Assembly (NCBI GenBank): GCA_016721765.1
Contig: JADKHO010000002.1
Location: 927,141 to 991,140 of the forward strand
DNA length: 64,000 nucleotides
Direction: 5' to 3'
From: Bacteroidota bacterium
GTDB taxonomy: Bacteria; Bacteroidota; Bacteroidia; UBA4408
Made by a program: the position numbers and the translations under genes. Positions 10,869-38,727 of this stretch are shown here, in pieces. Under the pieces are notes generated by a model. It did no database searches. It saw nothing but the letters and a program-made list of their open reading frames with translations, and was not told where the DNA came from. Numbering within the stretch: the first letter of the stretch is position 1; each line of letters begins with the position of its first letter.

Positions 10869-12521
10869 TCATTCAAAAACAATCTTACCACTATAACTTT
10901 TTGTCCCATTGCTTAGTACCGCATTATATAAGCCCTTGGCTTCCGCTTCCAAACTAAGTTTTACTTTGCCATCGCTCATTTCTAAGTTCTTCTGTTGGAT
11001 GAGTTTGCCTAAGCTGTTGTAAATGCTCAGCACAAGAATTCTCTCGTGCAAAAATTCATTGGGCACTGAAATGTTGCACTTGCCTTCATTGGGGTTGGCG
11101 TGGATAAACAGTTGATTTCTTGAATTAGATTTTTCTAATTCCTTTGTATCTAAAGTTAAATCATATTTACCTATGAAAACATCATCATAGCCAGTGCTTG
11201 ATAATAGGAATAAGTCTAAAGAAATTGCTTGGTAAAAACTTCCTGAAATATATATATTATTTGATATATCTAATGTCATTTTAGCCAAACTATTAATAGC
11301 TATAAGCCTAGCTGATAGGCTATTACCACTATCATTGAGTGTATGAATAAAATGCTCACCATTTCCCGAACTAGTTAAAGAAAATGTATCAAAACTAGCA
11401 TTGCCATCAAGATAGCCCATTTGATAAATTGTCCCATCAGAACCAAGCGAAAGTTGCAATCCATCCATTCCATTTGAGGCATTTCCTTGTTTGCACCATT
11501 TCCAGATTCCCATTGAATCGGCTTTACAAATAAACATATCAGCCAAATTAGAATTAAATAATTGGAAATTCCCAAAATCCAAATTTGATTGAAAGTCACC
11601 AGTTATATAAACATTATCATTCAAATCACAGCATAAATCAAAAGCACCAGCATAAAAATTGCTCTATACTAATTTATGCCATTTTAGTGAACCAAGTGTA
11701 TCAAAACATGCCAAAATAAAGTTATGTGCAGTGGATGAAGTAATTTGGGTTGTATCAATTTTTATGGAATTACTGCTTACACTAAAAATTGAATAAATAT
11801 TATCATCCTTTCTTACTGTTTTAAATTCTAAAGTTTTTGATGATATTTTTTTACTAAATACAATATTTCCATTAATATCGAATAAAGCGAAAAAATTCCC
11901 AGGTAAAAGTATATTGGGACCAACCTGCATTGTATCAGATGTATAACCATAAATAATCTGATTTCCATGTATATCAGAATCGATTGAAATAAAACTTGAG
12001 AATGCATATGGAAATTGTTTTGCCCAAATGAAATTTCCATTCAAATCCATTTTAGTATAAAAACTCACTCCATAACCTGACAAAGTTGTGCTCCCGAATG
12101 CTGCAAAGCCATATATATTTCCGGTTAAATATATACATTGATTGAACGGATCAAAGCTTAAACTTCCAGATGATTCATAAATATTAGAGTTTCCAATAAT
12201 ATTGTTACCGCCTATACTTTTTGCCCAAAGTACATCTCCGGTGGAGGAATACTTCGCAATATAAATTTGATTATCTCCAACTGGAAGTAAGGTAATTGTA
12301 TCAAAACTTATGCTTGAGGCTGGAGTATTCATAAAAATAAAGCTATAAGTTCCAGTAACATAAACATTGCCGCTAAAGTCAGTACAAATATTGGAAATTT
12401 TATCAGATGAGCTGCCTCCGGCTTGTTTAGCCCATTGCCAATTTTGCGCATAAATTTCTATCGTATTTAAAAAAACACAAAATAGAATTATGCCATTTAT
12501 ATTTTTATAGATATTTTTCAT
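10869..12521 (-). pseudogene. SBBP (beta-propeller) repeat T9SS-secreted protein interrupted by a single in-frame TAG (at 11664-11666)
   Basis: ORFs 11664..12521 and 10869..11624 are in the same frame and are separated only by one TAG. The upstream part has a signal peptide and SBBP repeats. The downstream part continues the repeats (starting from a TTG pseudo-start) and ends with a T9SS CTD. The read-through peptide is a continuous ...WHKLV*SNFYAGAFDLCCDLNDNVYITGDF. Confidence 0.55.
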
Positions 12522-13234: not shown

Positions 13235-14608
13235 ATGAATATTAATTTCCATCCAAGAAACCTTACAAAAAAAACACCTCAGCGTATTTGGGCTATATTT
13301 TATGCCGAAAAAAACAGAATCGCAATTGACACTAATCTGTTTGTTTCACCCAAAGATTGGAGCAGAAAAAAGAAGTGTTATTTAAGCACAAATGCCAACT
13401 CCGAAAAGCTTAATAAAATTCTTAAAGAGCAAAAAAAGCAAATTGAAATTTATGCAGAGGAATTGCTCAGTCACTTGATGAAAAACAAAAAGCGTTTTTA
13501 CAAAGATGAATTTGAAAAAGAGTTGAAGGAAAAATTCGACTACTACTTCAAGTTTGGTGAAAATAAGCCGGAAGAAAAAGGTGAAGTATATGACTTCATC
13601 AGCTTTATTGATAAATACATTTCCAATCGAATGGAACTATGTGAAGGCACACATCAAACACTTCGTGGCGCGAGGAAAAATATTGTTTTGGCATTCAATC
13701 TTGCGCCAGCTAAACTGGTAAAAAAATGGAAAGCAATGAACAATTTTGAGCGAAAATTAAACCCTGATTTCTTGGAAGCTGAAAAACAACTTGACTTTTC
13801 TGAAATTAACAAATCATGGATGATGGCTTATAATACTTGGTTGATAAATGCTAATTATAGAGATAAGAACAAAGAGACCGGAATCATGGAGAATATGCCC
13901 TATTCGAAAAATTACATTGCGAAGGAAATAAAAATTGCAAAGCAATTTGCGAATGCAGCTGCCGATGAAGGGTACATAAGTAATTTAAGTTATAGAAGTG
14001 TAAAAGCGCAATGGGAAGAAGCAGATACAATTGCCCTATCATGGCAAGAAATTGCAAAACTTAAAGCATTAGAACTTGACCCGAATACTACAGAAGGTAA
14101 GGTAAGAAACCTATTTGTTTTTAATTGCTATTGCGGCTTACGATGGAGTGATTTAGTGCGCCTCGACAATAGCCGATTCTCAAGAGAAGGCAATCAACTG
14201 TTTCTAAGCATTCGCATGAAAAAGACAGATACATCCATTGGATTTCCAATTCTACCGGCTGCCGAAGAAATAATGAGAATTTATAATTACCGACTACCCA
14301 ACGTTTGTGTGCAAATATTTTGCGAAAAGATTAAAAAAATCTGTTTGAAAGCCGGTATCACAGAATTGGAAACCAAGCGTGAAACAAGAGGTGGAAGGAA
14401 ATTAATCTTCTCCATTCCCCGCTATAAAATGGTAAGCAGTCATACTGGAAGAAGAACATTTGCCACCAATTTTGAAGCAATGGGAGTAGCCTTAAATGAA
14501 TTGATGGCAATTACAGGACATACAACCGAAAAGGCATTTCGAAAATATGTAAAGAAAAGAGTGGAAACCAAATTTGCAAGTTTCTTAGCTGCGGGTGCAA
14601 CTGTATAA
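13235..14608 (+). CDS. Tyrosine-type site-specific integrase (Bacteroidota Arm-DNA-binding N-domain + SAM-like + catalytic domain)
   Basis: The C-terminal catalytic motifs are HTGRRTFAT...H..EKAFRKYV (R, H-x-x-R and the Tyr nucleophile region). The N-terminus resembles the Bacteroidota integrase arm-binding domain. Confidence 0.85.
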   Translation: MNINFHPRNLTKKTPQRIWAIFYAEKNRIAIDTNLFVSPKDWSRKKKCYLSTNANSEKLNKILKEQKKQIEIYAEELLSHLMKNKKRFYKDEFEKELKEKFDYYFKFGENKPEEKGEVYDFISFIDKYISNRMELCEGTHQTLRGARKNIVLAFNLAPAKLVKKWKAMNNFERKLNPDFLEAEKQLDFSEINKSWMMAYNTWLINANYRDKNKETGIMENMPYSKNYIAKEIKIAKQFANAAADEGYISNLSYRSVKAQWEEADTIALSWQEIAKLKALELDPNTTEGKVRNLFVFNCYCGLRWSDLVRLDNSRFSREGNQLFLSIRMKKTDTSIGFPILPAAEEIMRIYNYRLPNVCVQIFCEKIKKICLKAGITELETKRETRGGRKLIFSIPRYKMVSSHTGRRTFATNFEAMGVALNELMAITGHTTEKAFRKYVKKRVETKFASFLAAGATV

Positions 14609-22118: not shown

Positions 22119-23236
22119 GAGGTAGCGTTTTAGTTATAAATTGGGATAAAAGGATTGGCGATACAAGGTTGAACAAAGGATTTTGGATTGTCAATACTCA
22201 AAAAGGATGATATTTGAGTGATTACAAAAAAGGCGCTTGGAAATTGCTTAGAAAGAGAATGGGTAGTTCTTATCATGTAGTTCGGTTTTAAAAATTAAAA
22301 CTCCAACCTTACATTTTTCACTCAATTTTTTAAGTGAAAATCCTTCTAAGTAAAAAGCCTAAATAAAATGCATTTGGGCGATGAATTATTTGATGGGGTC
22401 AATTAAAGAAAAATAAATTGAAATGTCAATCCGTATTTCTACGGAAAATTCAATTATTTTTTGGATAGCTACAAACCAATGATAGAAAGGAATCAAACAA
22501 TTTATTTGCGAATATCGCAAATTTTTGTTTAAATTTTTTTCGGCAGATTTGATAAAACAGGAGCAAAATATTGGCGATTTTAGCGGGAACGAAAAGCAAG
22601 AAAAAAACTCCCTTTTTTTTAGAAATAAAACATGCCATTTTTTACTTCCAATTCATTTAATAATTTTCTTTGAGCGGCTAATTATTTATCTAAGCATGAA
22701 ATAGATTTAAGGCAAAATACTCCTGTCGCAAATTGTTTTTTGCATTGTTGCCTGCAAGCTTTTATAATGGCTAAACCCAATTTCATTTTTCTGGATTCTG
22801 AATTAGAGCGATTTTGATGTTATAACTTGTTGTAGCAAGATAACTGCTAAAGATTTCTAGGCATTTTATTTTCGAAAAATCAAATAGCTGCTTTTATACT
22901 TTTATTTCAAGCTTTAACTAAGCTATTCCTAATCAAACAAAAATAATTGCTGGCTTTTCGAAGAAATTTCGAATAGCTCCCAAACGATTACTCAATTCAA
23001 ACACAGTTTAACTCGATGTGAATTAAAAATAACGGACTTTATCCAAGCAATTCTAGACTTCTCACTTAAAATAATGGATTGTTGCCAATGTATTTCTGAT
23101 AATTTGAAGCTTTTTGGAGCATATTACAAGAGTTTTTCTAAAGTGTAACCTGTTTGCATAGTATTTTAATGTTATTTAGATGGCATTTTTATGCCTTTTA
23201 CATACCATTTACATAGATTTTAATGTTATTTACAGG

Positions 23237-23380
23237 CTTATCCGTAACAATAACACAGTTTTATACAAGAATTACAGACTTATCCGTAACAATAACACGG
23301 TTTATCACATTAATAACTCATTTATCCGTAACAATAATTCATTTTTTCGAATCAATTACAGACTTAGCCGTAACAAATAA
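23237..23380. repeat. Iteron array: 4 copies of (A)CAGrCTTAtCCGTAACAAtAA at exact 42-bp spacing
   Basis: The copies start at 23237, 23279, 23321 and 23363. They lie in a 2-kb non-coding region between divergent genes. Confidence 0.7.
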
Positions 23381-24080
23381 GTGCTGTAAACTACTGAATT
23401 TACACGGTTTTATGAAATGGGATGATAAATTCCACGCATTTTAGCTTAGTGTCGCTCACATTTGAATTAGGCAATTGCTAAAAGATATCATTTTCACCGT
23501 TTCCTGACTTGCGCATTTCCATTTCAGAAAACAAAAAAACTCAAGCCAAATTTTGCTTTTTGTGTTTTACAATTTTCGAATATTTTTCTCCCCCATTTTC
23601 CAAAATCTGACGGAATTTTCCGGTCCCGTTTTTTGCAGAAATCGCAAAAATAGTTAGCAATCATTTACCAGCGTTGAGCTACAGCTATTTTTAAGATAGT
23701 TGCATTTTCCGTATTTCTACGGATTGATAATTCGATTATTTTTTTATTGCTTTAGCGGGATTTAATTTATTAAAGTGGCTAGGGATAAATTTGAGTTCTT
23801 TGAATTATTTTGATAAATAACATTAAAACAAGCTGAAAGCAATAATAAAAGTGGATAAACTATCTTGATAAATTTTTTAAGACCTAATAATGCACTTTAT
23901 TTTGGGTAAATAGGGATTGAAAATATAAAATATTCTTTTTGAAAGCACCTGAAAAATATTATGATGGAATAGAGTGGATAATTCCAATAATTACAGATTT
24001 AGTGTCTGATAAATTATCAGCAAAAGAAATAATTAAAAAAGTAATCACAATTATTCAAACAATAAATAAATAAATAGGTC

Positions 24081-24572
24081 ATGGCAAGAAAAACATTCTT
24101 TAGCTTCCATTATGAAAATGATGTATGGAGAGCAAATCAAGTTAGAAATAGTTGGGTAACCAAGGACAATAACGAAGCGGCTGGCTTTATTGATTTTGCA
24201 GATTTTGAGAAAGTAGAGAAAGAAGGAGAGACTGCAATAAAGCAATGGATAGATAAACAGCTTGAAGGAACTTCTGTAACTGTTGTATTGATTGGTTCAG
24301 ACACCAACAATCGTCCGTATGTAAAATATGAGTTAGAAAAAAGCTGGGAAAAGGGCAATGGCATTTTGGGTATTTATATTCATCAACAAAAGAATAAAGA
24401 CGGGAAAATTGATAAAAAGGGAAGTAATTCATTTGGCCCTCTCTTTAAAAAGAGTTCTGATGACAAGCAATATTTTTGGGAACGATTTGAAACTTATGAC
24501 TGGGTTGATGATGACGGTTATAATAACATGGGAAAATGGATTGAATTAGCAGCAAAAAAAGCAGGTAGATAA
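24081..24572 (+). CDS. ThsB-like TIR domain protein (DUF1863/MTH538 TIR-like)
   Basis: The N-terminal motif FFSFHYENDVWRANQVRNSW and the overall ~160-200 aa layout match Thoeris ThsB-type TIR proteins. It is the first of three tandem paralogs. Confidence 0.65.
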   Translation: MARKTFFSFHYENDVWRANQVRNSWVTKDNNEAAGFIDFADFEKVEKEGETAIKQWIDKQLEGTSVTVVLIGSDTNNRPYVKYELEKSWEKGNGILGIYIHQQKNKDGKIDKKGSNSFGPLFKKSSDDKQYFWERFETYDWVDDDGYNNMGKWIELAAKKAGR

Positions 24573-25195
24573 TGGCAAGATATGTTTTTTTTAGTTTCGC
24601 TTATGACGATGTAAAGAACTTCAAAGTAAACGTTGTTCGGCACAGTTGGCTAATCAATAAAAATGAAGAAACTTTTATTGATGGTTCAATTTGGGAAAAG
24701 GATAAAACCAAAGGTTCAATAGCAATAATGAAGCTTATTGAGAATGGTTTAAACAAAACATCGGTAACGGCAATTCTAATTGGAGAAGAAACGGCAAATA
24801 GGCGTTGGGTTAATTATGAACTAATAAAAAGTTTTGACCGAGGAAACGGAATTTTAGGAGTTTATATTAATAGAATCAGAGGCAAACAACAAGCAATTTC
24901 AGCAAGAGGCCTTAATCCACTTGACCGTCTTGCATTTCAAATTTCAGAGGATGGAAGGAAAATTCGGTTTTATGAATTGATAAATCGCAAATGGGTCGTT
25001 TACTCTGACTTACCTGAAATAAATAATAAGAAGTCAAATACACTTTACTTTGAAGATAGCTTTTGGAAGGGTAATGATTTTGGAAAATCATTTCGCTTTT
25101 CTGAAATGTTCAATACTTTTTGTTGGATAAATGATGATGGACACAAAAACTTTTCATCTTGGGTTGAAGAAGCGGCAAATGAAGCAGGACGATAA
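24572..25195 (+). CDS. ThsB-like TIR domain protein (DUF1863)
   Basis: It has FFSFAYDDVKNFKVNVVRHSW...SVTAILIGEETANRRWVNYE...WVEEAANEAG. This is the closest in the window to the canonical ThsB pattern. Its start overlaps the previous gene's stop. Confidence 0.7.
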   Translation: MARYVFFSFAYDDVKNFKVNVVRHSWLINKNEETFIDGSIWEKDKTKGSIAIMKLIENGLNKTSVTAILIGEETANRRWVNYELIKSFDRGNGILGVYINRIRGKQQAISARGLNPLDRLAFQISEDGRKIRFYELINRKWVVYSDLPEINNKKSNTLYFEDSFWKGNDFGKSFRFSEMFNTFCWINDDGHKNFSSWVEEAANEAGR

Positions 25196-25212
25196 ACATA
25201 AAATATATTTTC

Positions 25213-25590
25213 ATGAGTAAATCAATTTTTATTAGTTGCGTTTTTGAAGACAGTCATAGAATTGAGTCAATAAAAAAATGGGCTATGAACAACCGACTTG
25301 GGGATGTAATAATTACCCATGAAACGGAAGATAAACGCCCACTTGGTAAAGATGCAATCAAGAAACATATTCAAAGCAAAATTGAAGGCGCTGCCATAAT
25401 ATTAGTATTGATTGGACAAGACACACATAATCATGAATGGATTGAAGCAGAAGTTGAGCTTGCAAACAGTTTTCATAAAGAAATTATTTGCGTTAGAGTT
25501 CCTCAAACCAAAGGTGCAGCTCCAATTTTGCTGGCAAATAAACGTTTAATTAGTTTTGACCCTGACGCTATTAAAAAGCTAATTTCATAG
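25213..25590 (+). CDS. Short TIR-like (DUF1863-like) protein
   Basis: It has an IFISCVFEDS start with an AIILVLIGQDTHNHEWIEAEVELA core. It is 125 aa. Confidence 0.5.
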   Translation: MSKSIFISCVFEDSHRIESIKKWAMNNRLGDVIITHETEDKRPLGKDAIKKHIQSKIEGAAIILVLIGQDTHNHEWIEAEVELANSFHKEIICVRVPQTKGAAPILLANKRLISFDPDAIKKLIS

Positions 25591-25852
25591 ACTATACTTA
25601 AACAGAATAAAGAGACAAAAAGCACAGAGCAAATGGATCATTTGAAAAAAGATAGATATCAAGTTCCGTAGATTATTTTTACAACGTACGTCTTTTTTAA
25701 TTCAATTTTATTGCCATCTCACAAATAATAAATTTGGTTTTGCCTAAGTCATAAGCAAAACCTTTGTAAACATTTATTGTCCACGCAACAACAATAACTT
25801 TAAGTATTTATAACTTAGCAAATTCCTAGACTTAAAATACTTATACCCAAAA

Positions 25853-27415
25853 ATGGCAAAACAAAAAAAAGAAGTAAAAGAAAAAAGCATTGAAGTTACC
25901 CTTTGGGAAGCAGCTAATAAATTGAGAGGTAGCGTAGAGCCTGCCGAATACAAACACGTAGTATTAGGCCTGATTTTCTTAAAGTTTGCCAGTGACAAGT
26001 TTGAAGAACATCGAGCCAAATTGATTGCAGAAGGCAAAGACAAATACCTTGAACTGGCTGACTTCTACAATATGAGCAACGTATTCTTTTTGGAAGAAAC
26101 AAGCCGGTGGAGTCTCCTTATAAAAAAGTCAAAACAAAACGACATTGCATTGCTCATTGACACAGCATTGCATACTATTGAAAAAAACAACAAAGCACTG
26201 AAAGGTGCATTGCCCGACAATTACTTTTCTCGTTTGGGTTTGGATGTAACCAAACTAGCTTCTTTGCTTGATACCATTAACGACATTGACACCATCAAAG
26301 ACCCGAAGCAAGATGTTGTTGGGAAAGTGTATGAATACTTTCTTTCAAAATTTGCATTGGCAGAAGGAAAAGGCAAAGGAGAATTTTACACCCCCAAAAG
26401 CATTGTAAACCTGATTGCCGAAATGATTGAACCTTACAAGGGAATTATCTATGACCCAGCTTGTGGTTCGGGTGGAATGTTTGTGCAGAGTATTAAGTTT
26501 ATTGAAGCACACCACGGCAACAAAAAAGAAATTAGCATTTACGGACAGGAATACACCAACACGACTTACAAACTGGCGAAAATGAATTTGGCCATTAGAG
26601 GCATTAGTGGCAATCTTGGTGAAAAAGCTGCCGACACTTTTGCAGACGATCAACACAAAGACCTTAAAGCAGATTACATAATGGCTAATCCACCTTTTAA
26701 CCAAAAAGATTGGCGTGCCGAGAACGAATTGAAAGACGACCCACGTTGGAGAGGCTATGATGTGCCTCCCAAAAGCAACGCCAATTATGGTTGGATATTA
26801 AATATGGTTTCTAAACTTTCCGACAATGGTATTGCAGGTTTTATATTGGCAAACGGTGCATTGAGTGGCGGTGGCGAAGAATATAAAATACGCAGAAAAC
26901 TGATTGAAAATAAATTGGTGGAAGCCATTTTGGTATTGCCACGTAATTTGTTTTATACCACCGACATCAGCGTTACGCTTTGGATTGTGAACAAAAACAA
27001 AAAAGCACAAAATAAAAAAGTGGGAGTCGAAACCCGCAACAACCGTGACCGTGAAAAGGAAATCTTATTTATGGATTTGCGACAAATGGGCGAACCATTT
27101 GAAAAGAAATACACACAGTTTTCTGAGACTGATATTCAAAAAGTAACAAGTACATACCACCAATGGCAAACTAAAAATATTGAAAACGTTCCTGAATTCT
27201 GCTATTCGGCAACGTTTGATGAAGTAGCCAAAAAAGATTTTTCACTCGTTCCGAGCAAATACATTGAGTTTGTAAACCGTGACGAGAATATTGACTTTGA
27301 CAAAAAAATGCAAATCCTGCAAAACGAATTTGCAGGATTACTAAAAGCAGAAGCTAATTCAAAAAATGATTTACTAACCGTGTTTAAAGAATTGGGTTAT
27401 GAAATCACATTATAA
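25853..27415 (+). CDS. hsdM: Type I restriction-modification system DNA methyltransferase subunit
   Basis: It has an N6-adenine MTase catalytic motif NPPF (IMANPPFNQ) and an AdoMet motif (DPACGSGGMF). It is 520 aa and has HsdM N- and C-domains. Confidence 0.9.
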   Translation: MAKQKKEVKEKSIEVTLWEAANKLRGSVEPAEYKHVVLGLIFLKFASDKFEEHRAKLIAEGKDKYLELADFYNMSNVFFLEETSRWSLLIKKSKQNDIALLIDTALHTIEKNNKALKGALPDNYFSRLGLDVTKLASLLDTINDIDTIKDPKQDVVGKVYEYFLSKFALAEGKGKGEFYTPKSIVNLIAEMIEPYKGIIYDPACGSGGMFVQSIKFIEAHHGNKKEISIYGQEYTNTTYKLAKMNLAIRGISGNLGEKAADTFADDQHKDLKADYIMANPPFNQKDWRAENELKDDPRWRGYDVPPKSNANYGWILNMVSKLSDNGIAGFILANGALSGGGEEYKIRRKLIENKLVEAILVLPRNLFYTTDISVTLWIVNKNKKAQNKKVGVETRNNRDREKEILFMDLRQMGEPFEKKYTQFSETDIQKVTSTYHQWQTKNIENVPEFCYSATFDEVAKKDFSLVPSKYIEFVNRDENIDFDKKMQILQNEFAGLLKAEANSKNDLLTVFKELGYEITL

Positions 27416-28565
27416 ACCATTGGGTAAATACATACAACTTGTTGTAGGTCGCAACAATGAGTTGGGAGATTTACCATTAATGGGCTTGAGTATTTCAAAA
27501 AAATTTATTCCTTCTATTGCGAATACAATAGGAACTGATATGTCAACATACAGAACCATTTATAAAAATCAGTTCGCTTATGGTCCTGTAACATCAAGAA
27601 ACGGAGATAAATTTACAATTGCTTTGTTTAATGATTATGACAAAGCGTTGATTTCACAAGCATATATTCCTTTTGAAGTAAAAGACAGCAACGAACTTGA
27701 ACCCGAATATTTGATGATGTGGTTTCGCAGACCTGAGTTTGACCGTTACGCAAGATTTAAAAGTCACGGCAGTGCAAGAGAAATTTTTGATTGGGAAGAA
27801 ATGTGTAATACACTTCTGCCAGTTCCCCACCCCGACAAACAACGAGAAATAGTAAAAGAATACAACACCATACAAAACCGCATAGCACTCAACCAGCAAC
27901 TGATACAAAAACTCGAAGAAACCGCACAAGCTATTTATAGGCAGTGGTTTGTGGAAGGTATTGATTTACAGAATTTGCCAGAGGGGTGGACAATTGGTGA
28001 TTTAAGTATGATTTCCAAAAAAATATTTAGCGGTGGTACTCCGTCAACTGAAGTTGATGAATATTGGAATGGTGATTATTACTGGTTTTCTTCTGGTGAG
28101 ACTGGCTATAAATATATTCTTAGTACAGAAAAAAAAATCACTAAGGAAGGTATAAAGAACTCTACCACAAAAAAAACACAAAGATTAAGTACTGTAATTG
28201 CAACTGCGGGTCAGGGTAAAACTAGAGGTCAATCTGCTCTAATTTTTAATGATGTTTATATTAACCAATCTGTTATCTCTGTAGAACCAATAAGTACTGA
28301 ATATTCATATTTCATTTTCCTGAACATTAATTCAAGATACGAGGAATTAAGAAATGATTCTGATGCTCAAAGTATCAGAGGTAGCATCAATTCAAATGAC
28401 ATTAAAGGGTTGTCAACGATAGTGCCACTAAATGACATTATGCTAAAGTTTCACAAGACCGTTTCTCCTTTTTTTGAAATAATTGAGAATAAAATGAAAC
28501 AAAACCAAATGCTAAAGGAACTGAAAGATTTGCTTCTTTCGAAATTAGCGACAATAGAAAATTAA
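27399..28565 (+). CDS. hsdS: Type I restriction-modification specificity subunit
   Basis: It has two target-recognition domains separated by a conserved central helical repeat. It overlaps hsdM by 17 nt. Confidence 0.8.
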   Translation: MKSHYKPLGKYIQLVVGRNNELGDLPLMGLSISKKFIPSIANTIGTDMSTYRTIYKNQFAYGPVTSRNGDKFTIALFNDYDKALISQAYIPFEVKDSNELEPEYLMMWFRRPEFDRYARFKSHGSAREIFDWEEMCNTLLPVPHPDKQREIVKEYNTIQNRIALNQQLIQKLEETAQAIYRQWFVEGIDLQNLPEGWTIGDLSMISKKIFSGGTPSTEVDEYWNGDYYWFSSGETGYKYILSTEKKITKEGIKNSTTKKTQRLSTVIATAGQGKTRGQSALIFNDVYINQSVISVEPISTEYSYFIFLNINSRYEELRNDSDAQSIRGSINSNDIKGLSTIVPLNDIMLKFHKTVSPFFEIIENKMKQNQMLKELKDLLLSKLATIEN

Positions 28566-28572: not shown

Positions 28573-29754
28573 ATGAGATATAAATATCAGCTAATAATAT
28601 TAGGCAGTAAAGTTTCAATAATTGATGATGTGATAGAATTGTTTTCTAAAAAATTAGAAGATTTGAAATTGCCAGATAGTTCTGTTAAAATTATTAATTC
28701 AGGTAATTTTGAAGCTGAATACCTAGGTAATCAGCCGGCATTTGTATTTTATTTTGGTGATGTGGTTGGAAATTTTAAGGATTTGGATATTACTCAGAGG
28801 TTATTGAATGAAGGCACTATGATATTGCCTATTTATTTTAATAATGATTCCTTCTCAAAGGAAATACCATGCATTTTAGAAAACCAAAATGGTATTCAGT
28901 ACAAAAAAATTGAAGAAGACAGAATAGTAAATATTGCATTAGAATCTTTTGAACTATTAAACAATACAAGAAAAATATTTATTAGTTATAAAAGAAATGA
29001 ATCAACATCAGTTGCCATTCAATTATTTGAAGCTTTAGAAGCGCATAATTTTGATGTTTTTTTAGATACTCATTCAATAGGTAAAGCTGAAGCGTTTCAA
29101 GAAGAATTATGGCACAAAATGACGGATTGTGATGTAATTCTACTACTGAATACACCAAATTTTCTGAATAGTCATTGGTGTAAAGAAGAATTTGCAGAAG
29201 CTGGTGCTAAACAAATTGGTATTGTTCAATTGGTTTGGCCAAATCATAATGTAAAAATGGATGATACATCTCATATCAGTTTTCCAAAGCAATTAATTAA
29301 AGAAAATTTCATTGCCGATTTATTTGATGACAGGGATAAATCAAAATTAAAAGATGATATAGTTGAAGAGATAATCAAAGAGGTTGAATCAGTTAGAGCG
29401 AGGAATTTAGCCGCACGGCAAGATAATTTAATTACAGAATTTAGAAATATTGCTGATAGAATTGGAAAAAAAATCACTTTACAACCAGAAAGATTTTTGA
29501 CAGAAGATTTGTCAAACGGTGAAAGAAGAATATATATACCAACGATTGGTATACCACAGTCAACAAGTTGTCAATCTGCTGAAATAAGAAATGAATTATT
29601 AAACTATGGTAATATCAGCATTAGGTTAATTTATGATGATATACGGATAAGAGAAAAATGGATTAATCATCTAGATTGGTTAAATAAAAATTTAAATGTA
29701 GATATCAAGACATTAAAAAAACAAGAATTTGAATCATGGCTAAGCAAGAATTAA
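28573..29754 (+). CDS. TIR domain-containing protein (N-terminal unknown domain + canonical TIR + C-terminal extension)
   Basis: The central RKIFISYKRNESTSVAIQLFEALEAHNFDVFLD...DVILLLNTPNFLNSHWCKEE is a canonical TIR signature. It starts 8 nt after hsdS. Confidence 0.6.
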   Translation: MRYKYQLIILGSKVSIIDDVIELFSKKLEDLKLPDSSVKIINSGNFEAEYLGNQPAFVFYFGDVVGNFKDLDITQRLLNEGTMILPIYFNNDSFSKEIPCILENQNGIQYKKIEEDRIVNIALESFELLNNTRKIFISYKRNESTSVAIQLFEALEAHNFDVFLDTHSIGKAEAFQEELWHKMTDCDVILLLNTPNFLNSHWCKEEFAEAGAKQIGIVQLVWPNHNVKMDDTSHISFPKQLIKENFIADLFDDRDKSKLKDDIVEEIIKEVESVRARNLAARQDNLITEFRNIADRIGKKITLQPERFLTEDLSNGERRIYIPTIGIPQSTSCQSAEIRNELLNYGNISIRLIYDDIRIREKWINHLDWLNKNLNVDIKTLKKQEFESWLSKN

Positions 29755-30332
29755 AAAATATTTTTCTATCTGCAAGTATTCCTTTGCCGGACAGAGATCC
29801 AAAATATATAGAGACTGCTGATATTATTGCTATCCGAGATGCTGTTATAGCTCTAACAACAGTTGTGCTACCATATCATAGAATTATTTGGGGTGGTCAT
29901 CCATCAATTACTCCTTTAATTTATTATGTAATGGATAAATTGAAATTAAATGTACAAAATCATGTTACTCTTTATCAATCAGAGTTCTTTAAAGAAAAGT
30001 TTCATGAAGACAATAATAAATTTGAAAATGTAATACTTACTGAAAACCTAGGTGACATTCCTTCAAGTGTTAAAAGAATGCGTGAAATAATATTTTCTGA
30101 GAATAAATTTGTTGCTGCAGTTTTTATAGGTGGTATGGATGGAATTGAAGTTGAATTTAATATGTTTCGAGAATATCATCCGGATGCTATTTTATTGCCA
30201 ATTTCAAGTGCAGGAGCAGCTTCTAAAGTTGTTTATGAAAATCTTCTGCCTGCAGAATTTAAAAATGAAATGCTGGTTAAGAATTATGCTTATATGTCTT
30301 TATTTCAAAATTTGTTAATCGATAAAATTTAG
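29736..30332 (+). CDS. SLOG/LOG-like Rossmann-fold protein (candidate TIR-signal sensor)
   Basis: The protein is 198 aa with two Gly-rich loops (RIIWGGHPS and VFIGGMDGIE) like LOG/SLOG (ThsA C-terminal) domains. It overlaps the upstream TIR gene by 19 nt. Confidence 0.4.
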   Translation: MAKQELKNIFLSASIPLPDRDPKYIETADIIAIRDAVIALTTVVLPYHRIIWGGHPSITPLIYYVMDKLKLNVQNHVTLYQSEFFKEKFHEDNNKFENVILTENLGDIPSSVKRMREIIFSENKFVAAVFIGGMDGIEVEFNMFREYHPDAILLPISSAGAASKVVYENLLPAEFKNEMLVKNYAYMSLFQNLLIDKI

Positions 30333-30335: not shown

Positions 30336-31031
30336 ATGGCAAGAAATGTTTTTGTTTCATACAAATATTCTGACTCAAAAGTTCAAGACTTAGAGCTTTT
30401 TGAGATAGTTAATTATTTTGGTTCTAATATGAGACGTAAAATCACTACTACTGCTCGGCACTATGTAGACAAAGTAGCTGAAAAGCTGGAAAAGGAAGAC
30501 CACATCTTTAAAGGAGAAGATGATAATGAAAGCATGGAGACACTTGCTGATTCAACCATTGGTTCAAAGTTAGGTGATAAGATATTTTACAGTAGCGTAA
30601 CAATAGTGTTAATCTCTAAAGGAATGAAAGAACCTTTCAAGGCAGATAAAGACCAATGGATTCCTTGGGAAATATCTTATTCATTAAAACAACAAGATAG
30701 GCAAGATCAAAAAAGCAAAACCAATGGAGTTATAGCAGTTGTGTTACCTGATGAACTAGGCAGTTATGACTACTATATTACAAGAGATGAAGAATGTAAT
30801 TGCCGGTCATTAAATACGCCTATTCTCTTTGAAATACTAAGAGAAAATATGTTCAATGTAAAAGTCCCTAACAGACGACTTTGCAATGGTAGCTATGTTT
30901 ACACAGGTGATGCTTCATATATCCCGTCAATTAAATGGGAGGATTTTATTATTAAACCTTCAACATACATTGATAAGGCAATAGAACTAAGAGACAGAAA
31001 GGAAGATTTTGAATTAAGAAAAAATTTGTAA
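30336..31031 (+). CDS. TIR-like (DUF1863-like N-terminus) protein with unknown C-terminal domain
   Basis: The N-terminus MARNVFVSYKYSDSK parallels the ThsB-like genes upstream. It is 231 aa and starts 4 nt after the SLOG-like gene. Confidence 0.45.
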   Translation: MARNVFVSYKYSDSKVQDLELFEIVNYFGSNMRRKITTTARHYVDKVAEKLEKEDHIFKGEDDNESMETLADSTIGSKLGDKIFYSSVTIVLISKGMKEPFKADKDQWIPWEISYSLKQQDRQDQKSKTNGVIAVVLPDELGSYDYYITRDEECNCRSLNTPILFEILRENMFNVKVPNRRLCNGSYVYTGDASYIPSIKWEDFIIKPSTYIDKAIELRDRKEDFELRKNL

Positions 31032-31041: not shown

Positions 31042-32754
31042 ATGGCGGAATTACATGTAAGTAGAAAAACGATCAGCAAATTACTAAGTGAAATGCAAGG
31101 AAGAAGGTTTATTATTCCAGATTTTCAACGCCCTTATAGATGGGACATAGAAAAATGTGAAACTCTTTGGAACGATATTATTAATTTTTTTGAAAATGAT
31201 CCAGAAGACACGGAATATTTTTTAGGAACCATTGTTACTGCTGAAAATGAAGAAAAAAATCCAGAAGTAATTGATGGACAGCAACGACTTACTTCGCTTT
31301 TTTTAATGTTAAGAGCTTTTTACAAGAAGTTGGAATCAATGAAAGATGATGATGATGTATTAGGTCTTAAAATGCAAGTAGGTCCATGTCTTTGGGATGT
31401 ACATTCAATATCTAAAAAAGTAAGTGATTTCAGTAAAATACATATATATTCTGATGTTGCAACCGATAGCGATAATCAGGTATTTCATAACATACTAGTT
31501 AAAGGTGAAGTAGAGAAGGCTCATGAAGATAATTATTCAATTAATTATCAATTTTTCAAAAGCTCTTGTGATGAATACGCAAAATCTAAACCGACAAAAT
31601 GGTATAGCTTATGTGTGGCAATACTAAATAGATGCATTATATTACCAATTGAATGTGATAAGCAGGAAACTGCCCTTACAATTTTTTCAACATTAAATGA
31701 TAGAGGGCTTCCTTTGGCAGACTCTGATATTTTTAAAGCTCAAATTTATAAGAACTATAAGTCTTCGGCTGAAAGAAAGGAATTTACTGAGCAATGGAAG
31801 CAGCTTACTGAAGTTTGCACTGAAGCTAATATTTCAATAGATGATGTCTTTAGGTATTATACTCATATTTTAAGAGCTAAAGCGAATGATAAAACAAAAG
31901 AGGTGGGCTTAAGAAAGTTTTATGCTCAAGATTTCTATTCCAGATTAAAAGAGGAGAACTGTCTTTCAGAAATTATTAAACTCTCTAATTTTTGGTGGTA
32001 TATTAATAATTATGAAAATCCTGCTGATTACCTTGAAGAAAATGAACCCTACCAAATCAGTACTTCAGCATTCAGATATATTCACGTTCTTATGAACTAC
32101 CCAAATGAATATTGGAAATATGTTACCAGTGTTTATTACTATACAAACAGAGTAAATGAAAATTTTAAAGATGATTTTGAGATATTCCTGAAACAACTTA
32201 TTGCATTTTTATTTGCAAAATTTATTGAACAGCCTACTGTAAACGCAATTAAAGATGATATTTATAGCGCTTGCATTTCAATTAGTTATGGAAACGGCTT
32301 AGGTCTTTACTACAATTTTTCTCAAGCCTATTTAGCTAATCGATATGAAACATTTTCTAGTTCTAAAATCAGCAAAGGCTTATTGCTACTTGACGCTTAT
32401 TTACATCCTGATCAAAAAGACTACATAAAAAAAGAAGTTGAAATTGAACATATATTTCCTAGGAAATGGCAATCTACAAATTACTTTGGATGGAAAGAAG
32501 AAGATGCAAGGGATTACTTAGACAAATTCGGAAATAAAATTGTTTTTGAGAAGAAACTAAATATTCAGGCCGGTAATGGTTATTTTAAGCGGAAGCAAGA
32601 TAAATATAGGTCTTCGGAAATTTCAGTTGTTAGAGATTTGGCAAACTATCAAAATAATGATTGGACAAAAGATGATATTGAAAAGCGTGAAGCAATTTTA
32701 AAAGATAGATTGATTGATTTTTTCAATAGTTTTATAAATGTTGGCTCTAAATAA
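31042..32754 (+). CDS. GmrSD-family type IV (modification-dependent) restriction enzyme, DUF262 + DUF1524
   Basis: The N-terminal DUF262/ParB-like motif is FIIPDFQRPYRWD...IDGQQRLTS. The C-terminal DUF1524 His-Me finger is EIEHIFPRKW. Confidence 0.8.
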   Translation: MAELHVSRKTISKLLSEMQGRRFIIPDFQRPYRWDIEKCETLWNDIINFFENDPEDTEYFLGTIVTAENEEKNPEVIDGQQRLTSLFLMLRAFYKKLESMKDDDDVLGLKMQVGPCLWDVHSISKKVSDFSKIHIYSDVATDSDNQVFHNILVKGEVEKAHEDNYSINYQFFKSSCDEYAKSKPTKWYSLCVAILNRCIILPIECDKQETALTIFSTLNDRGLPLADSDIFKAQIYKNYKSSAERKEFTEQWKQLTEVCTEANISIDDVFRYYTHILRAKANDKTKEVGLRKFYAQDFYSRLKEENCLSEIIKLSNFWWYINNYENPADYLEENEPYQISTSAFRYIHVLMNYPNEYWKYVTSVYYYTNRVNENFKDDFEIFLKQLIAFLFAKFIEQPTVNAIKDDIYSACISISYGNGLGLYYNFSQAYLANRYETFSSSKISKGLLLLDAYLHPDQKDYIKKEVEIEHIFPRKWQSTNYFGWKEEDARDYLDKFGNKIVFEKKLNIQAGNGYFKRKQDKYRSSEISVVRDLANYQNNDWTKDDIEKREAILKDRLIDFFNSFINVGSK

Positions 32755-35700
32755 ATGAAATTCACGGAAGAAAAATTAGAGAGAGCATTTATCGAATTGT
32801 TAGGGCAAGAAGGATTTCCCTACCGATTAGGCAATACTTTAACTCGTAAGTCTGAAGAAGTATTGATAGAAGAAGATTTACAAAACTTTCTTTTAACACA
32901 ATACGCTGGGCAAGGCATTACAGTCAATGAAATCAAATCTATTATTCTTCAACTCAAATCGCTTTCCGCTTCCGACCTTTATGAAAGCAACAAAACATTT
33001 TTAAAAATGCTTTCAGACGGTTTTATTCTCAAACGAGAAGACCGCAGCCAAAAAGATATTTACATTCAGCTTATCAATTACGCAGGACTAAACAAACACC
33101 GCCAACCTGATGCAGCCCAGTTAATTTCTATTGCTGCCGAACCCGAAGAAGTTTATCCACCAGACAATAACATTTACAAGTTTGTAAACCAATTAGAAAT
33201 TATTGGTTCAGAAAAACGTATTCCTGATGGTATTGTTTATATCAACGGTTTGCCTTTGGTGGTATTTGAATTCAAATCTGCCATTCGTGAAGAAGCCACT
33301 ATTTTCGATGCTTTCAAGCAATTAACGGTTCGTTACCGCAGAGATATTCCTGAACTGTTTAAATACAATGCTTTTTGTGTTATTAGCGATGGCGTAAATA
33401 ACAAGTCAGGTTCATTCTTTGCCCCGTATGAGTTTTTCTATGGCTGGCGCAGAGTGGCAGGTTTGGCAAAAGATGTGGACGGCATTGACAGTATGTTTAC
33501 ACTCATACAGGGAATGTTTCACAAAAACCGATTACGAGATATTATTCGCAACTTCATTTACATTCCTGATAGCTCAAAGAAAAATGAAAAAATTGTTTGT
33601 CGCTATCCGCAATACTATGCAGCAAGAGCATTATATGACAATATCAAAAAAGCCCAAAAGCCCGAAGGAAACGGAAAAGGTGGAACTTATTTTGGTGCCA
33701 CAGGATGCGGAAAAAGTTTTACTATGCTTTATCTCACAAGATTGTTGATGAAGAGCGAATACTTTGAAAGTCCGACTATTGTTTTAATAACTGACCGTAC
33801 CGATTTAGATGACCAACTTTCGGGACAATTTACCAATGCTAAAAATTTCATAGGCGACAATACTGTTGTAAGTGTGGAGAGCAGGGCCAATTTGAGAGAA
33901 TTAATTCAAGGCAGACAAAGCGGAGGCGTTTTCTTAACCACGATTCACAAGTTTACGGAGGACACACAACTTCTTACCGATAGACCAAACGTGATTTGTA
34001 TTTCTGACGAAGCTCACAGAAGCCAAGTAAACCTTGACCAAAAAGTAAAAGTTACCGAGAAAGGCGTTACCAAAACTTATGGCTTCGCCAAATACTTGCA
34101 CGATTCATTGCCCAATGCCACATTTGTTGGTTTCACAGGAACTCCCATAGATGCAACGTTGGATGTATTTGGGAAAGTGGTGGATGCTTACACAATGACC
34201 GAATCGGTGAAAGATGAAATCACTGTGCGGATTGTTTATGAAGGCAGAGCAGCAAAAGTGTTGTTGAACAATTCCAAACTCAAAGAGATTGAAGATTATT
34301 ACGCCAAGTGTGCTGAAATAGGCAGCAACGAAAATCAGATTGAACAGAGCAAAAAGGAAATGGCACACATGTATGCCATCATTGGCGACCCTGACCGTTT
34401 AAAAGCAGTTGCCGAAGACTTTGTAAACCATTATGAAAACAGAGTTTCGGAAGGTTCAACCGTGAAAGGCAAAGCAATGTTTGTGTGTAGCACTCGTGAA
34501 ATTGCTTATGAGTTGTATAAAAACATTATTGCCCTAAAACCCGAATGGAATGAAATACTTGCAGCAGAAGAAGGAGCAGAACTCACCGACAAAGACAAAC
34601 GAGAACTAAAACCCATTGAACGAATAAAGTTGATTGCCACCCAAGGAAAGGACGATGAAAAAGATATGTATGATTTGTTAGGCACAAAAGATTATCGCAA
34701 AGAACTTGACAGACAATTCAAAAATGAAAAATCGAATTTCAAAATCGCAATAGTAGTTGATATGTGGCTCACAGGTTTTGATGTGCCGTTCTTGGATAGC
34801 ATTTACATTGACAAACCTATTCAACGACATAATTTAATTCAAACTATTTCAAGAGTAAACCGCAAGTTTGAAGGAAAGAACAAAGGTTTGGTTGTGGATT
34901 ATATCGGCATCAAAACACAAATGAATCTGGCCTTGAAGCAATACAGCGAAGGCGACAAAGATAATTTTGAAGACATTGCTGAATCTATAATCATTGTAAG
35001 AAATCATTTAGACCTTTTGGCTAAACTGTTTCACACCTTTGACAATTCAAAATATTTTAAAGGCACTACTATTCAGCAATTAAATACGTTGAATTTGGCT
35101 GCTGAATATGTGCAACAAAGCAAAGACTTTGAAACCCGTTTTATGGGCTTGGTAAAGCGACTAAAAGCCGCTTATGATATTTGTGCAGGAAGCGAACAAT
35201 TAACTCAGTTAGAAAGAGATTACACACATTTTTATTTGGCAGTTCGTTCTATTGTTTTCAAACTCACCAAAGGTAATGCACCCGACACAGCACAGATGAA
35301 CGCTAAAGTTCGGGAAATGATAAAAGAAGCGTTGCAAAGTGAAGGTGTAGAAGAAATTTTCAAGCTCGGTGATGAAGCAGAAACCGAACAAGACATATTT
35401 GATGAAGATTATTTAGCGAAAATTGATAAAATCAAATTGCCGAATACTAAAATCAAATTGCTTCAACAGTTATTGGCTAAAGTGATTGCAGAAATTAAAA
35501 AAGTAAATCGTGTAAAAGGAATTGACTTTACTAAAAAGATGCAAGCTCTTGTTGAACGCTACAACAACCGTGATGTAAATGATATTTTGAGAAGTGAAGT
35601 GTATGAGGAAATGGCAAACGCTTTGACAGACTTGATTTGGGAAGTTCACAAAGAATTTGCAGCAGGAGACGCTTTAGGAATTGACTTTGAAGAAAAAGCA

Positions 35701-35967
35701 TTTTACGACATTCTTAAAGAACTGTGTGTAAAATACGACTTCAAGTATCCTGATGACAAAATGATTGACCTTGCAAAAGCTGTGAAAGACTTGGTTGATG
35801 GACAAGCCAAATTTCCTGATTGGAATAAACGTGATGATATTAAATCAGCTTTGAAAGTTGGTTTGATTTTATTATTGGATGAGTTTGGTTATCCACCGGT
35901 GGAAAGGGATGAAGTGTATGTAGAGATTTTTGAACAGGCGGAGAATTTTAAGAAAAATAAAATTTAA
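32755..35967 (+). CDS. hsdR: Type I restriction enzyme R subunit
   Basis: It has an N-terminal HsdR_N, an SF2 helicase motor (GTGKS-like Walker A in ATGCGKSF and DEAH-box ISDEAHRSQ) and a C-terminal helical domain. It is 1070 aa and its start abuts the gmrSD stop. Confidence 0.9.
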   Translation: MKFTEEKLERAFIELLGQEGFPYRLGNTLTRKSEEVLIEEDLQNFLLTQYAGQGITVNEIKSIILQLKSLSASDLYESNKTFLKMLSDGFILKREDRSQKDIYIQLINYAGLNKHRQPDAAQLISIAAEPEEVYPPDNNIYKFVNQLEIIGSEKRIPDGIVYINGLPLVVFEFKSAIREEATIFDAFKQLTVRYRRDIPELFKYNAFCVISDGVNNKSGSFFAPYEFFYGWRRVAGLAKDVDGIDSMFTLIQGMFHKNRLRDIIRNFIYIPDSSKKNEKIVCRYPQYYAARALYDNIKKAQKPEGNGKGGTYFGATGCGKSFTMLYLTRLLMKSEYFESPTIVLITDRTDLDDQLSGQFTNAKNFIGDNTVVSVESRANLRELIQGRQSGGVFLTTIHKFTEDTQLLTDRPNVICISDEAHRSQVNLDQKVKVTEKGVTKTYGFAKYLHDSLPNATFVGFTGTPIDATLDVFGKVVDAYTMTESVKDEITVRIVYEGRAAKVLLNNSKLKEIEDYYAKCAEIGSNENQIEQSKKEMAHMYAIIGDPDRLKAVAEDFVNHYENRVSEGSTVKGKAMFVCSTREIAYELYKNIIALKPEWNEILAAEEGAELTDKDKRELKPIERIKLIATQGKDDEKDMYDLLGTKDYRKELDRQFKNEKSNFKIAIVVDMWLTGFDVPFLDSIYIDKPIQRHNLIQTISRVNRKFEGKNKGLVVDYIGIKTQMNLALKQYSEGDKDNFEDIAESIIIVRNHLDLLAKLFHTFDNSKYFKGTTIQQLNTLNLAAEYVQQSKDFETRFMGLVKRLKAAYDICAGSEQLTQLERDYTHFYLAVRSIVFKLTKGNAPDTAQMNAKVREMIKEALQSEGVEEIFKLGDEAETEQDIFDEDYLAKIDKIKLPNTKIKLLQQLLAKVIAEIKKVNRVKGIDFTKKMQALVERYNNRDVNDILRSEVYEEMANALTDLIWEVHKEFAAGDALGIDFEEKAFYDILKELCVKYDFKYPDDKMIDLAKAVKDLVDGQAKFPDWNKRDDIKSALKVGLILLLDEFGYPPVERDEVYVEIFEQAENFKKNKI

Positions 35968-37731: not shown

Positions 37732-38727
37732 ATGACTATAAATCAAACCATTATGAAGAGAACAAACGAAATTATTAAATCATTTGATTACTCAGTAAAT
37801 CAAACTGAAGAATTGCTGTCAAGTTTAAGTGGAGAGCTCAGGATGTTGCCTCTAATTACAACCACTATTGCAAAAGGACAAAAAATATTTAGATGCCGTC
37901 CGATTCGCAAAGTTTCAGATATTCCACATTCTGAAAGCGAAATTTCTTATAGACCTGATGAAAAAGAAATTAAAACAATAGGCAGATGCAACTGGTTGGA
38001 GTCTTCAAAATTCTATGGTTCCATTAAAAGTGGAAATGAAGATGAAAACAATAAGGAGAAAAAGTATATACCTGGGGACGTGACAGCAATTGCAGAAATC
38101 AGTGATCTTGCACGAAATGATAAAGACGGTTCCGAAGTTTATGCAGTTGGAGTCTGGGAGGCTATAGAAGATTTTAAATTGTCTGTCTTGAAACCACCAT
38201 CTACAATTTCTTCCGAAAGTTTAATTGTTACAGAAATTCGTAATGCTTATAATGAGACATTTAAGAATGATAATCTTTCAGATGATCTCATAGAATTTCT
38301 TGAATTATATGGAAAACACATGGTACAAAAAGTAGGACCTGATGAAAATGAAAAGTATATGATATCATCATTAATCTCAGAGACACTTTTAGACTTTATT
38401 CCAGGGATGATATATACCTCGGTACAGTCGGATCACAAGGGCTTAAATGTTGTTATGAATCCACATGATTTTGTTAAATATTTTGCATTAAATCATGTAG
38501 TTATTGGTGAGTATTTCAAATTTAAAAACCATGCAACTTTTGGAGCAGTGTCGGTTTGTGAAGACACAAACGTCATTCCGTTTCAATATAAATTACCATC
38601 TGAAAAGGATCGCTTGATTTATTCTGAAATTATCGCGCTTTTTATCAGAGAAGGTATCTCTCGCGATTATATGGCAGATGTATTGACTAAACAATTGGCA
38701 AGTCAATCTCAAAAGGTTAAAGTATGA
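37732..38727 (+). CDS. RES-like (Arg-Glu-Ser NAD+-glycohydrolase toxin fold) domain protein - tentative
   Basis: GRCNW...KFYGS, AIAEIS and GMIYTSVQSDHKGLNVVMNP resemble the RES domain R / E / S blocks. Confidence 0.35.
   Translation: MTINQTIMKRTNEIIKSFDYSVNQTEELLSSLSGELRMLPLITTTIAKGQKIFRCRPIRKVSDIPHSESEISYRPDEKEIKTIGRCNWLESSKFYGSIKSGNEDENNKEKKYIPGDVTAIAEISDLARNDKDGSEVYAVGVWEAIEDFKLSVLKPPSTISSESLIVTEIRNAYNETFKNDNLSDDLIEFLELYGKHMVQKVGPDENEKYMISSLISETLLDFIPGMIYTSVQSDHKGLNVVMNPHDFVKYFALNHVVIGEYFKFKNHATFGAVSVCEDTNVIPFQYKLPSEKDRLIYSEIIALFIREGISRDYMADVLTKQLASQSQKVKV

Follow-up and report, generated by a model that had tools for sequence, protein, structure and literature searches.

The stretch of DNA analysed here (the window) comprises 64,000 nucleotides (nt) from the metagenome-assembled genome (MAG) of a Bacteroidota bacterium (contig JADKHO010000002.1, positions 927,141 to 991,140), and the subject is a row of three ThsB-type TIR genes, T1, T2 and T3, together with the Thoeris-type defence genes around them. 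Very probably two separate Thoeris-type systems are neighbours within a single low-GC defence island at this locus, an effector-less type I system and a complete type III system. T1 (24081–24572, 163 amino acids (aa)), T2 (24572–25195, 207 aa, with a longer C-terminal domain) and T3 (25213–25590, a short TIR protein of 125 aa) lie co-directionally on the plus strand, and the T2 start and the T1 stop share 1 nt. In a profile search against Pfam all three exceeded the gathering score of PF08937 (ThsB_TIR, DUF1863; 21.2 bits), with 96.7 bits (E = 1e-27) for T1, 65.5 bits (E = 6e-18) for T2 and 49.8 bits (E = 5e-13) for T3; T3 additionally matched TIR_2 (E = 9e-7). PADLOC ThsB models matched each of them (T1 via PDLC00431, E = 2e-68), and T1 matched the solved B. 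cereus ThsB (6lhy) and ThsB1 (9b7d) with E = 2e-34. By blastp T1 and T2 are each 51% identical to the TIR domain of B. cereus ThsB (BcThsB), and a Glu aligned with its catalytic E85 is present in T1 (E84), T2 (E83) and T3 (E80), as well as in two proteins encoded further downstream, T5 (E112) and TIR4 (E206). The tandem of three ThsB-type (DUF1863) genes described in the initial annotation was thus found at exactly these coordinates, with the N-terminal motifs as it had quoted them (FFSFHY, FFSFAY and FISCVF) and with diverged C-termini; pairwise identity among the paralogues is 36% (T1/T2), 29% (T1/T3) and 24% (T2/T3). T1 belongs to a large family with little sequence divergence: a search gave 6,121 proteins at E ≤ 1e-5, and the best 120 of these are 69–87% identical to T1 and 159–174 aa long.

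T2 is 88% identical to its counterpart in the related locus L028 (loci used for comparison carry L numbers), and a T3 orthologue was found in one sampled locus only, L012 (55% identical), where the gene order is ThsA-T1-T2-T3. A 262-nt gap with a hairpin lies between T3 and the next gene, hsdM, and T1–T3 form a unit separate from the hsd operon. A sigma-70 promoter scan gave 68 sites compared with 60 ± 7 in shuffled sequence, and hence no excess; the TAAATTTG boxes at 23786 and 25729 are Bacteroidetes-like −7 motifs, for which no promoter is claimed.

Immediately upstream of T1, at 23939–24070 on the plus strand, the last 44 codons and the stop codon of a thsA gene were identified by tblastn and blastn against related thsA genes. 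The remnant reads LKAPEKYYDGIEWIIPIITDLVSDKLSAKEIIKKVITIIQTINK followed by the stop; it has no start codon, an in-frame stop lies just upstream, and it ends ten bases before the start of T1. By tblastn it is 77% identical to the ThsA C-terminus of L028 (E = 2e-16) and 45–50% identical to ThsA of L013, L015 and L016, and the blastn alignment to L028 (84.6% over 162 nt) extends from exactly 23939 through the thsA stop into T1. Upstream of 23939 there was no similarity to any related locus. The initial annotation had stated that the TIR genes have no adjacent ThsA and that no SIR2-SLOG or Macro ThsA occurs in the window; no intact one was indeed detected (Pfam found no SIR2, STALD or Macro domain in window open reading frames (ORFs) of at least 110 aa), but the 44-codon thsA 3' end had been overlooked. 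A transfer of the thsA 5' part to another place in the window was considered and rejected, as tblastn over the 64 kb returned the remnant alone and nothing else below E = 0.1.

MAG contigs can be chimeric, and there are related MAG loci with a frameshifted thsA (L015 and L028), so a mis-assembly that created a false junction and thereby hid thsA was weighed as well. Over 22420–25918, a stretch of 3,499 nt across the junction, the window agrees without a mismatch (100% identity) with L048, a Logan assembly made independently from run SRR11673995; the junction is therefore not a MAG mis-join, an artefact of this kind is extremely improbable, and it was rejected.

For comparison, 31 genomic loci encoding a T1 relative were surveyed and their neighbour genes were clustered. 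The commonest neighbour is a gene for a protein of 470–500 aa, which in most loci ends 1–17 nt upstream of the T1 orthologue; the protein carries SIR2_2 and STALD domains (Pfam), matches PADLOC ThsA1 (E = 2e-201) and the solved ThsA 6lhx (E = 2e-136), and is on these matches assigned to canonical type I ThsA. A TIR_2 protein of ~180–206 aa ("C2") is often encoded upstream of ThsA. thsA adjoins the T1 orthologue in 20 of the 31 loci, usually immediately upstream and co-directional with it, as an intact ORF in 17 and in disrupted form in three, namely L015 and L028 (frameshifts) and L021 (9083–9948), where aa 142–322 are deleted and the frame is shifted while the downstream T1 orthologue is intact. 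L021 is a second case of thsA decay, independent of that in the window. The idea in the initial annotation that genes of this kind belong to multi-ThsB type I Thoeris loci agrees with this count; so does the adjacency to ThsA for which a neighbourhood survey had been suggested there, whereas the other pattern it had raised, recurrent adjacency to hsdM, was not found for T1–T3 in the other hsd-embedded cassettes that reach far enough upstream. Since the annotation itself had named a canonical, normally co-transcribed ThsA found elsewhere as grounds for refutation, the adjacency seen in relatives also counts in part against it.

Because the thsA 3' remnant abuts T1, the lack of ThsA is explained by a deletion, and because the remnant adjoins T1 and thsA adjoins the T1 orthologue in 20/31 loci, T1–T3 are read as a type I Thoeris system minus its effector. 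A type I locus of the order ThsA-T1-T2-T3, as in L012, would have lost thsA by deletion or replacement with the right-hand breakpoint at 23939. The type I arm would then be dead in cis, the SIR2-SLOG NADase that should read the signal being gone, although by homology T1–T3 could still make a cyclic ADP-ribose (ADPR)-type signal on infection.

The stretch at 22119–23938, which in relatives holds the thsA 5' part and mostly an upstream ThsB gene, is non-coding and AT-rich in the window, without any ORF longer than 73 aa. Imperfect inverted repeats of 52 nt, each with a hairpin TCCGTATTTCTACGGA, lie at 22409–22460 and 23693–23743, and the segment that they bound contains four copies of TTACAG(A/G)CTTATCCGTAACAA spaced exactly 42 nt apart (23230–23376); the core motif of these repeats occurs four times against 0.13 expected. 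The 1.8-kb stretch had no match in plasmids or phages. Rfam over 22–26 kb gave one sub-threshold match and a scan of viral contigs for the repeat unit gave two single matches, all taken as chance. The repeat segment that replaces the thsA 5' part could be iteron-like or could resemble a miniature inverted-repeat transposable element (MITE).

The second system would lie ~3 kb downstream and consist of the constant pair of TIR4 and an LD_cluster3 SLOG protein with one accessory ThsB, T5; all three genes are on the plus strand. TIR4 (28573–29754, 393 aa) has an N-terminal domain, a TIR domain (residues ~135–225, TIR_2 with E = 6e-14) and a C-terminal domain, and matches the PADLOC ThsB model PDLC00434 over its full length (E = 2e-133). 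SLOG3 (29736–30332, 198 aa) is a stand-alone LD_cluster3 SLOG protein (PF18180, E = 6e-59), the counterpart of ThsD; its sequence is the same (100% identity) as that of IPP32_12305, a protein recorded at NCBI for a Bacteroidetes MAG, and its gene overlaps that of TIR4 by 19 nt. T5 (30336–31031, 231 aa; PF08937 with E = 6e-6, PADLOC ThsB PDLC00428 with E = 6e-78) starts 3 nt after SLOG3 and is 83% identical to the T5 of L037, which has the same hsd-embedded position. The initial annotation had correctly placed the sole SLOG-like gene of the window inside the restriction-modification (R-M) operon, but it missed the TIR genes on either side, TIR4 and T5.

Type III Thoeris consists of several TIR proteins and a SLOG effector, as in P. 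aeruginosa L0872 (van den Berg et al. 2024, as cited in 10.64898/2025.12.03.692087); the supplement of the citing paper gives four L0872 TIR domains, and the signalling of type III was uncharacterised as of December 2025 (10.64898/2025.12.03.692087). According to a review, the type III SLOG differs from the STALD type. By blastp, L0872 TIR4 is 46% identical to TIR4 of the window (E = 2e-37), L0872 TIR2 47% to T1, L0872 TIR3 46% to T2 and L0872 TIR1 40% to the C2 type. Homologues of L0872 TIR4 were found in L056 (93–97% identical) and in L046 and L047 (71%), each upstream of a PF18180 LD_cluster3 gene: in L046 and L047 the TIR4 homologue is directly upstream of the SLOG gene and ThsB_TIR genes follow it, and in L056 TIR4 is frameshifted into two ORFs, the second of which abuts the SLOG gene. 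The SLOG proteins beside these homologues are 40–43% identical to SLOG3 (43% for L056). Because a TIR4-type gene lies upstream, the SLOG is of the LD_cluster3 kind and an extra ThsB-type TIR gene is in the operon, TIR4-SLOG3-T5 is identified as type III Thoeris, predicted to be complete because it has every sequence-level hallmark of the type. The SLOG gene is accordingly part of this module and no stray piece of a ThsA.

The module sits within a type I R-M operon on the plus strand. The operon starts with hsdM (25853–27415, methyltransferase; N6_Mtase with E = 1e-104, and HsdM_N) and hsdS (27399–28565, specificity subunit; Methylase_S in two stretches), and after T5 it continues with a cargo gene for a GmrSD-family type IV restriction enzyme (31042–32754; GmrSD_N with E = 2e-38, GmrSD_C with E = 5e-16, PADLOC HEC-06 with E = 2e-54) and ends with hsdR (32755–35967, restriction subunit; HSDR_N, SWI2_SNF2 and T1RH-like_C). 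The order hsdM-hsdS-TIR4-SLOG3-T5-gmrSD-hsdR is co-directional with gaps of at most 10 nt or overlaps, and hsdM, hsdS and hsdR are all intact, with the foreign genes between hsdS and hsdR. Seventeen further loci were collected by a metagenome scan seeded with SLOG3 and by isolate look-ups, and in nine of them (L032, L033, L034, L037, L038, L039, L040, L041 and L054, the last being an isolate of Cyclobacterium plantarum) the module likewise lies between hsdS and hsdR. These nine carry the same hsd family as the window (HsdM 67–79% and HsdR 62–85% identical) and differ in how many additional TIRs follow the SLOG gene. L039 has exactly TIR4-SLOG3-T5 and L054 has TIR4-SLOG3-T5 plus a C2-type TIR; because both do without T1–T3, the module of the window appears, at the level of gene content, to be complete alone. 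Neither T1–T3 nor thsA was found upstream of hsdM in the embedded loci that reach that far (L032, L037, L039 and L054), and at the nucleotide level the window resembles the embedded cassettes from the hsdM ATG (25853) as far as the hsdR stop, but not beyond. Since the embedded loci share the linkage without T1–T3 and the homology begins at the hsdM ATG, the linkage of hsd and type III genes is older than their adjacency to T1–T3. In Bacteroidota the interval from hsdS to hsdR repeatedly carries type III Thoeris as cargo, and module and hsd genes move together as one cassette. L037 contains, at 11878–11946, a 70-nt copy (87% identical to window 32748–32817) of the first ~65 nt of hsdR, placed right after the embedded Thoeris genes and 3 kb ahead of the hsdR gene proper; recombination at the 5' junction of hsdR, with an exchange of cargo, may well have left this copy behind.

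These cassettes bear directly on the proposal of the initial annotation that an insertion of hsdMS split a Thoeris locus, in its most specific form a contiguous T1-T2-T3-TIR4-SLOG3-T5 locus. The order in the window minus hsdMS equals that of L031 and L016. A split of this kind, however, would take two insertions, one that placed hsdMS in front of TIR4 and one that placed gmrSD-hsdR behind T5, and both the hsdS-TIR4 junction and the T5-...-hsdR junction are common to the nine other loci, whose available sequence contains no T1–T3. Cassette homology begins at the hsdM ATG, as said, and the core proteins are nearer to those of embedded cassettes (TIR4 46–67%, SLOG3 59–72% identical) than to those of arrays contiguous with T1 (L001, L008, L015–L017 and L031; TIR4 41–46%, SLOG3 51–56%), with L006 as a T1-contiguous exception (TIR4 55%, SLOG3 64%). 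The shared embedding gives the proposal no support and makes it not the most parsimonious history, and an hsdM-hsdS insertion into such a locus is judged quite improbable.

A different account leaves the hsd cassette as it is and takes the locus as one functional but physically split type III system, in which T1–T3 would be sensors that signal in trans, across hsdMS, to TIR4-SLOG3; the thsA remnant would then only testify to an earlier state with two effectors in the array, a state still found in L016. We regard this as possible, though rather doubtful. L0872 type III includes T1-like and T2-like TIRs, SLOG3 retains three ThsA-like ligand contacts, and in L015 and L016 both effectors are present and arranged as in the window (C2-ThsA-T1-T2-C2-TIR4-SLOG3-T5), with thsA frameshifted in L015. 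At one chromosomal site in related Chitinophagaceae, T1-T2 are kept in a series of loci that loses either effector: L016 has both, L015 the frameshifted thsA, L013 ThsA without TIR4-SLOG3, and L031 TIR4-SLOG3 without ThsA. On the other side, the type III core of the window is of the hsd-embedded lineage, and in L039 and L054 this lineage needs no T1–T3 to be complete; no other embedded cassette reaching that far has T1–T3 upstream of hsdM; the 262-nt gap with its hairpin sets them apart; the extra TIRs within embedded cassettes are just 36–42% identical to T1; and no type III signal chemistry is known.

Several observations weigh against the reading preferred here, an orphaned type I array beside a self-contained type III module. 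T1 orthologues (58–75% identical) occur in the ThsA-less type III arrays L001, L006, L008, L017, L031 and L035; in all six they are contiguous with TIR4-SLOG3, and in L001, L008, L017 and L031 they are accompanied by T2 orthologues; L006 has no T2 beside its T1 orthologue. A tree built by neighbour joining does not sort the T1 orthologues by context, and those linked to ThsA, to type III and to PDC-M50 are intermingled in it. None of T1–T3 is disrupted and none has lost the catalytic Glu, contrary to what would be expected of a long-orphaned array. The remnant does not date the deletion, as its ratio of non-synonymous to synonymous substitutions (dN/dS) against L028 is 0.38 from just 16 substitutions and too noisy for this purpose (T2 against L028, 0.09). 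The type III gene order and SLOG sequence of L0872 were inferred from close homologues, and the structure model of SLOG3 is of moderate confidence (predicted local distance difference test score, pLDDT, of 71). Finally, the 64 kb analysed are part of a ~1.13-Mb contig, so the genome could still have an intact thsA outside them.

This last point is the core of a further explanation, in which T1–T3 have their partner, an intact ThsA or a different effector, at some other place in the genome. The chemistry would permit signalling in trans, the Thoeris signals being small molecules that diffuse. Yet wherever a partner occurs in the 31 sampled loci, it is no more than a few hundred bases away, and the remnant places the cognate thsA at this very locus. 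No partner of the PDC-M50A or RelA/SpoT type is present in the window, and such partners were rejected here; a service of T1–T3 to a distant thsA is accordingly considered improbable. RelA_SpoT-domain proteins (PADLOC PDC-S33-like) were observed directly after the T1 orthologue in L023 (10489–11496) and L030 (10486–11481), and in L021 (10817–11527) with one small ORF in between; this protein may be another effector pairing for the T1 orthogroup.

As to their fate, T1–T3 may well be an idle relic of the type I system. Since their orthologues sit in ThsA-less type III arrays, they may instead be functional type III members. T1–T3 are of TIR types that have orthologues in type III arrays, though here they lie outside the cassette, behind the 262-nt gap and beside a type I scar, and that they feed the neighbouring type III effector is a tentative suggestion. 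L042, where 4 kb lie between a type III array and a distinct ThsA-TIR-TIR locus, is a further example of both types at close range. The same ThsB orthogroups thus appear, from gene neighbourhoods, to serve different effectors and to be exchanged between ThsA-linked and ThsA-less arrays, in agreement with the reported association of a single TIR cluster with effectors of several types (10.64898/2025.12.03.692087). With similar reserve it can be proposed that type I and type III share both sensors and signal, that T1/T2-type ThsBs make the same molecule of the glycocyclic ADPR (gcADPR) type for either effector, and that the loss of thsA re-wired T1–T3 onto the hsd-embedded type III module. If true, the re-wired T1–T3 would let the type III module act on a wider range of phages.

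With respect to the mechanism of the type III module itself, the SLOG gene was never seen without TIR4 directly beside it, and in most loci the two genes overlap. Among 1.84 billion representative proteins, a profile search for fusions returned four full-length TIR4-SLOG3 fusions of 572–735 aa (P0265 with 600 aa, P0356, P0385 and P0298), which also keep the catalytic Glu of TIR4 (E206), and one SLOG3-ThsB_TIR fusion (P0392, 371 aa). With hhalign, residues 109–173 of SLOG3 aligned to the ligand-binding half of the ThsA SLOG with 90% probability. R116 of SLOG3 is nearly invariant and G136 and E140 are invariant; they correspond to R371, G399 and E403 of B. cereus ThsA (BcThsA, 6lhx numbering), which contact the diphosphate and the distal ribose of 3' cyclic ADPR (3'cADPR), and BcThsA K388 has no counterpart in SLOG3. 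Because of the adjacency, the overlap, the fusions, the kept Glu and the ThsA-like pocket residues, TIR4 and SLOG3 are probably a split TIR-SLOG effector, with SLOG as sensor and TIR as executing enzyme, in parallel to the SIR2-SLOG ThsA. Accessory ThsB-type TIRs (T5; elsewhere the T1, T2 and C2 types) would sense the phage and synthesize an ADPR-derived signal, SLOG3 would bind it in the pocket that has three of the 3'cADPR contacts of ThsA, and SLOG3 would then switch on its obligate partner TIR4, probably an NADase, leading to abortive infection; we infer both the identity of the signal and the NADase role of TIR4. Alternatively, SLOG3 may itself be a LOG-type enzyme.

Other type III arrays showed features of their own. 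L057 (204170–216739 of the E. coli IncHI1B conjugative plasmid NZ_CP034659.1) has a type III-like array with five TIR genes and a SLOG gene, in the order C2-type, T1/T2-type, patatin, TIR, TIR4-type, SLOG, C2-type, next to a TnsD-family gene; the patatin-like phospholipase in the middle is annotated as 'CBASS cGAMP-activated phospholipase'. In Flavobacterium sp. PL002 and Pseudoflavitalea sp. X16 (L051/L052, 10724–13892, and L053, 10213–13214) the type III array meets or interleaves with Nmad2, DCD, MazG_C and HMUDK_hel genes, which may be a linked nucleotide-manipulating module.

In the wider window, the sequence from ~11000 to 43600 is low in GC (0.29–0.36, compared with 0.37–0.43 in the flanks) and ends at a minus-strand tRNA-Asp gene (43551–43625). 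Besides the defence genes it holds a tyrosine integrase gene (13235–14608), genes for proteins with SprB repeats and type IX secretion system (T9SS) tails, three genes without Pfam or PADLOC match (37732–40006), and genes for an HNH_5 protein (40428–41843) and an HTH protein; the whole may be one large genomic island. A stand-alone PIN_3-domain gene lies at 54361–54780.

The apparent anomaly of ThsB genes without ThsA is read here as the loss of an effector plus a neighbouring system of a different type, and cases of a missing partner are best checked via gene remnants and homologous loci. The findings are ordinary defence-island turnover; all parts are from known families, and the categories of Thoeris are unchanged. 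For type III Thoeris the comparative data provide testable leads, namely the pairing of TIR4 and SLOG, the kept 3'cADPR contacts, the shared ThsB orthogroups and the cargo position in the hsd operon.

Among known systems, the PADLOC system PDC-M50, composed of a small transmembrane protein and a T1-type TIR, is similar in that PDC-M50B matches T1 (E = 5e-61) and T2 (E = 4e-52), and differs in that the window has no PDC-M50A gene: PDC-M50A homologues gave nothing better than E = 0.22 in the window by tblastn, and upstream of T1 there is no ORF longer than 73 aa. A literature search found no paper mentioning PDC-M50. In L002–L004 (e.g. L004, 626–4864), from MAGs labelled as different phyla, a gene for a methyltransferase-like protein of 1,110 aa, one for a transmembrane protein of 130 aa (PDC-M50A) and a T1 orthologue (75% identical; PDC-M50B) form a tight row. 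As to type II Thoeris, no Macro-domain effector was found by Pfam among the scanned ORFs of the window.

Type I Thoeris of B. cereus MSX-D12 is matched more closely, as T1 and T2 are 51% identical to BcThsB, keep the Glu and, in the case of T1, match 6lhy; arrays of several ThsB are usual in type I, and in the window the thsA 3' end is attached. By the same 51% homology the product of T1 could be a 3'cADPR-type signal. The difference is that thsA consists of 44 codons here, and so the locus is a relic and not a working type I system.

The placement of the type III module also has parallels. PrrC is one case of a defence gene embedded in a type I R-M operon. TgvAB of V. cholerae VPI-2 is another (PMC11411939), and the pattern of such genes has been described as 'guilt-by-embedding' (10.1101/2024.01.29.577857), in a preprint in which no mention of Thoeris, ThsB or SLOG was found. 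As in those operons, the cargo in the window lies between hsdS and hsdR, is co-directional with them and includes a GmrSD-family gene; it differs in being a multi-gene TIR/SLOG signalling system.

Compared with type III Thoeris L0872, the core in the window is inside a type I R-M operon with T5 alone in the same operon, T1–T3 are 3 kb upstream as a separate unit with a type I scar, a TIR of the C2/TIR1 type is lacking in the window, and the host is a member of the Bacteroidota. What the two have in common is an LD_cluster3 SLOG-only protein, a TIR4-type gene that overlaps the SLOG gene, and additional ThsB-type TIRs, which in the present case are found within the window.

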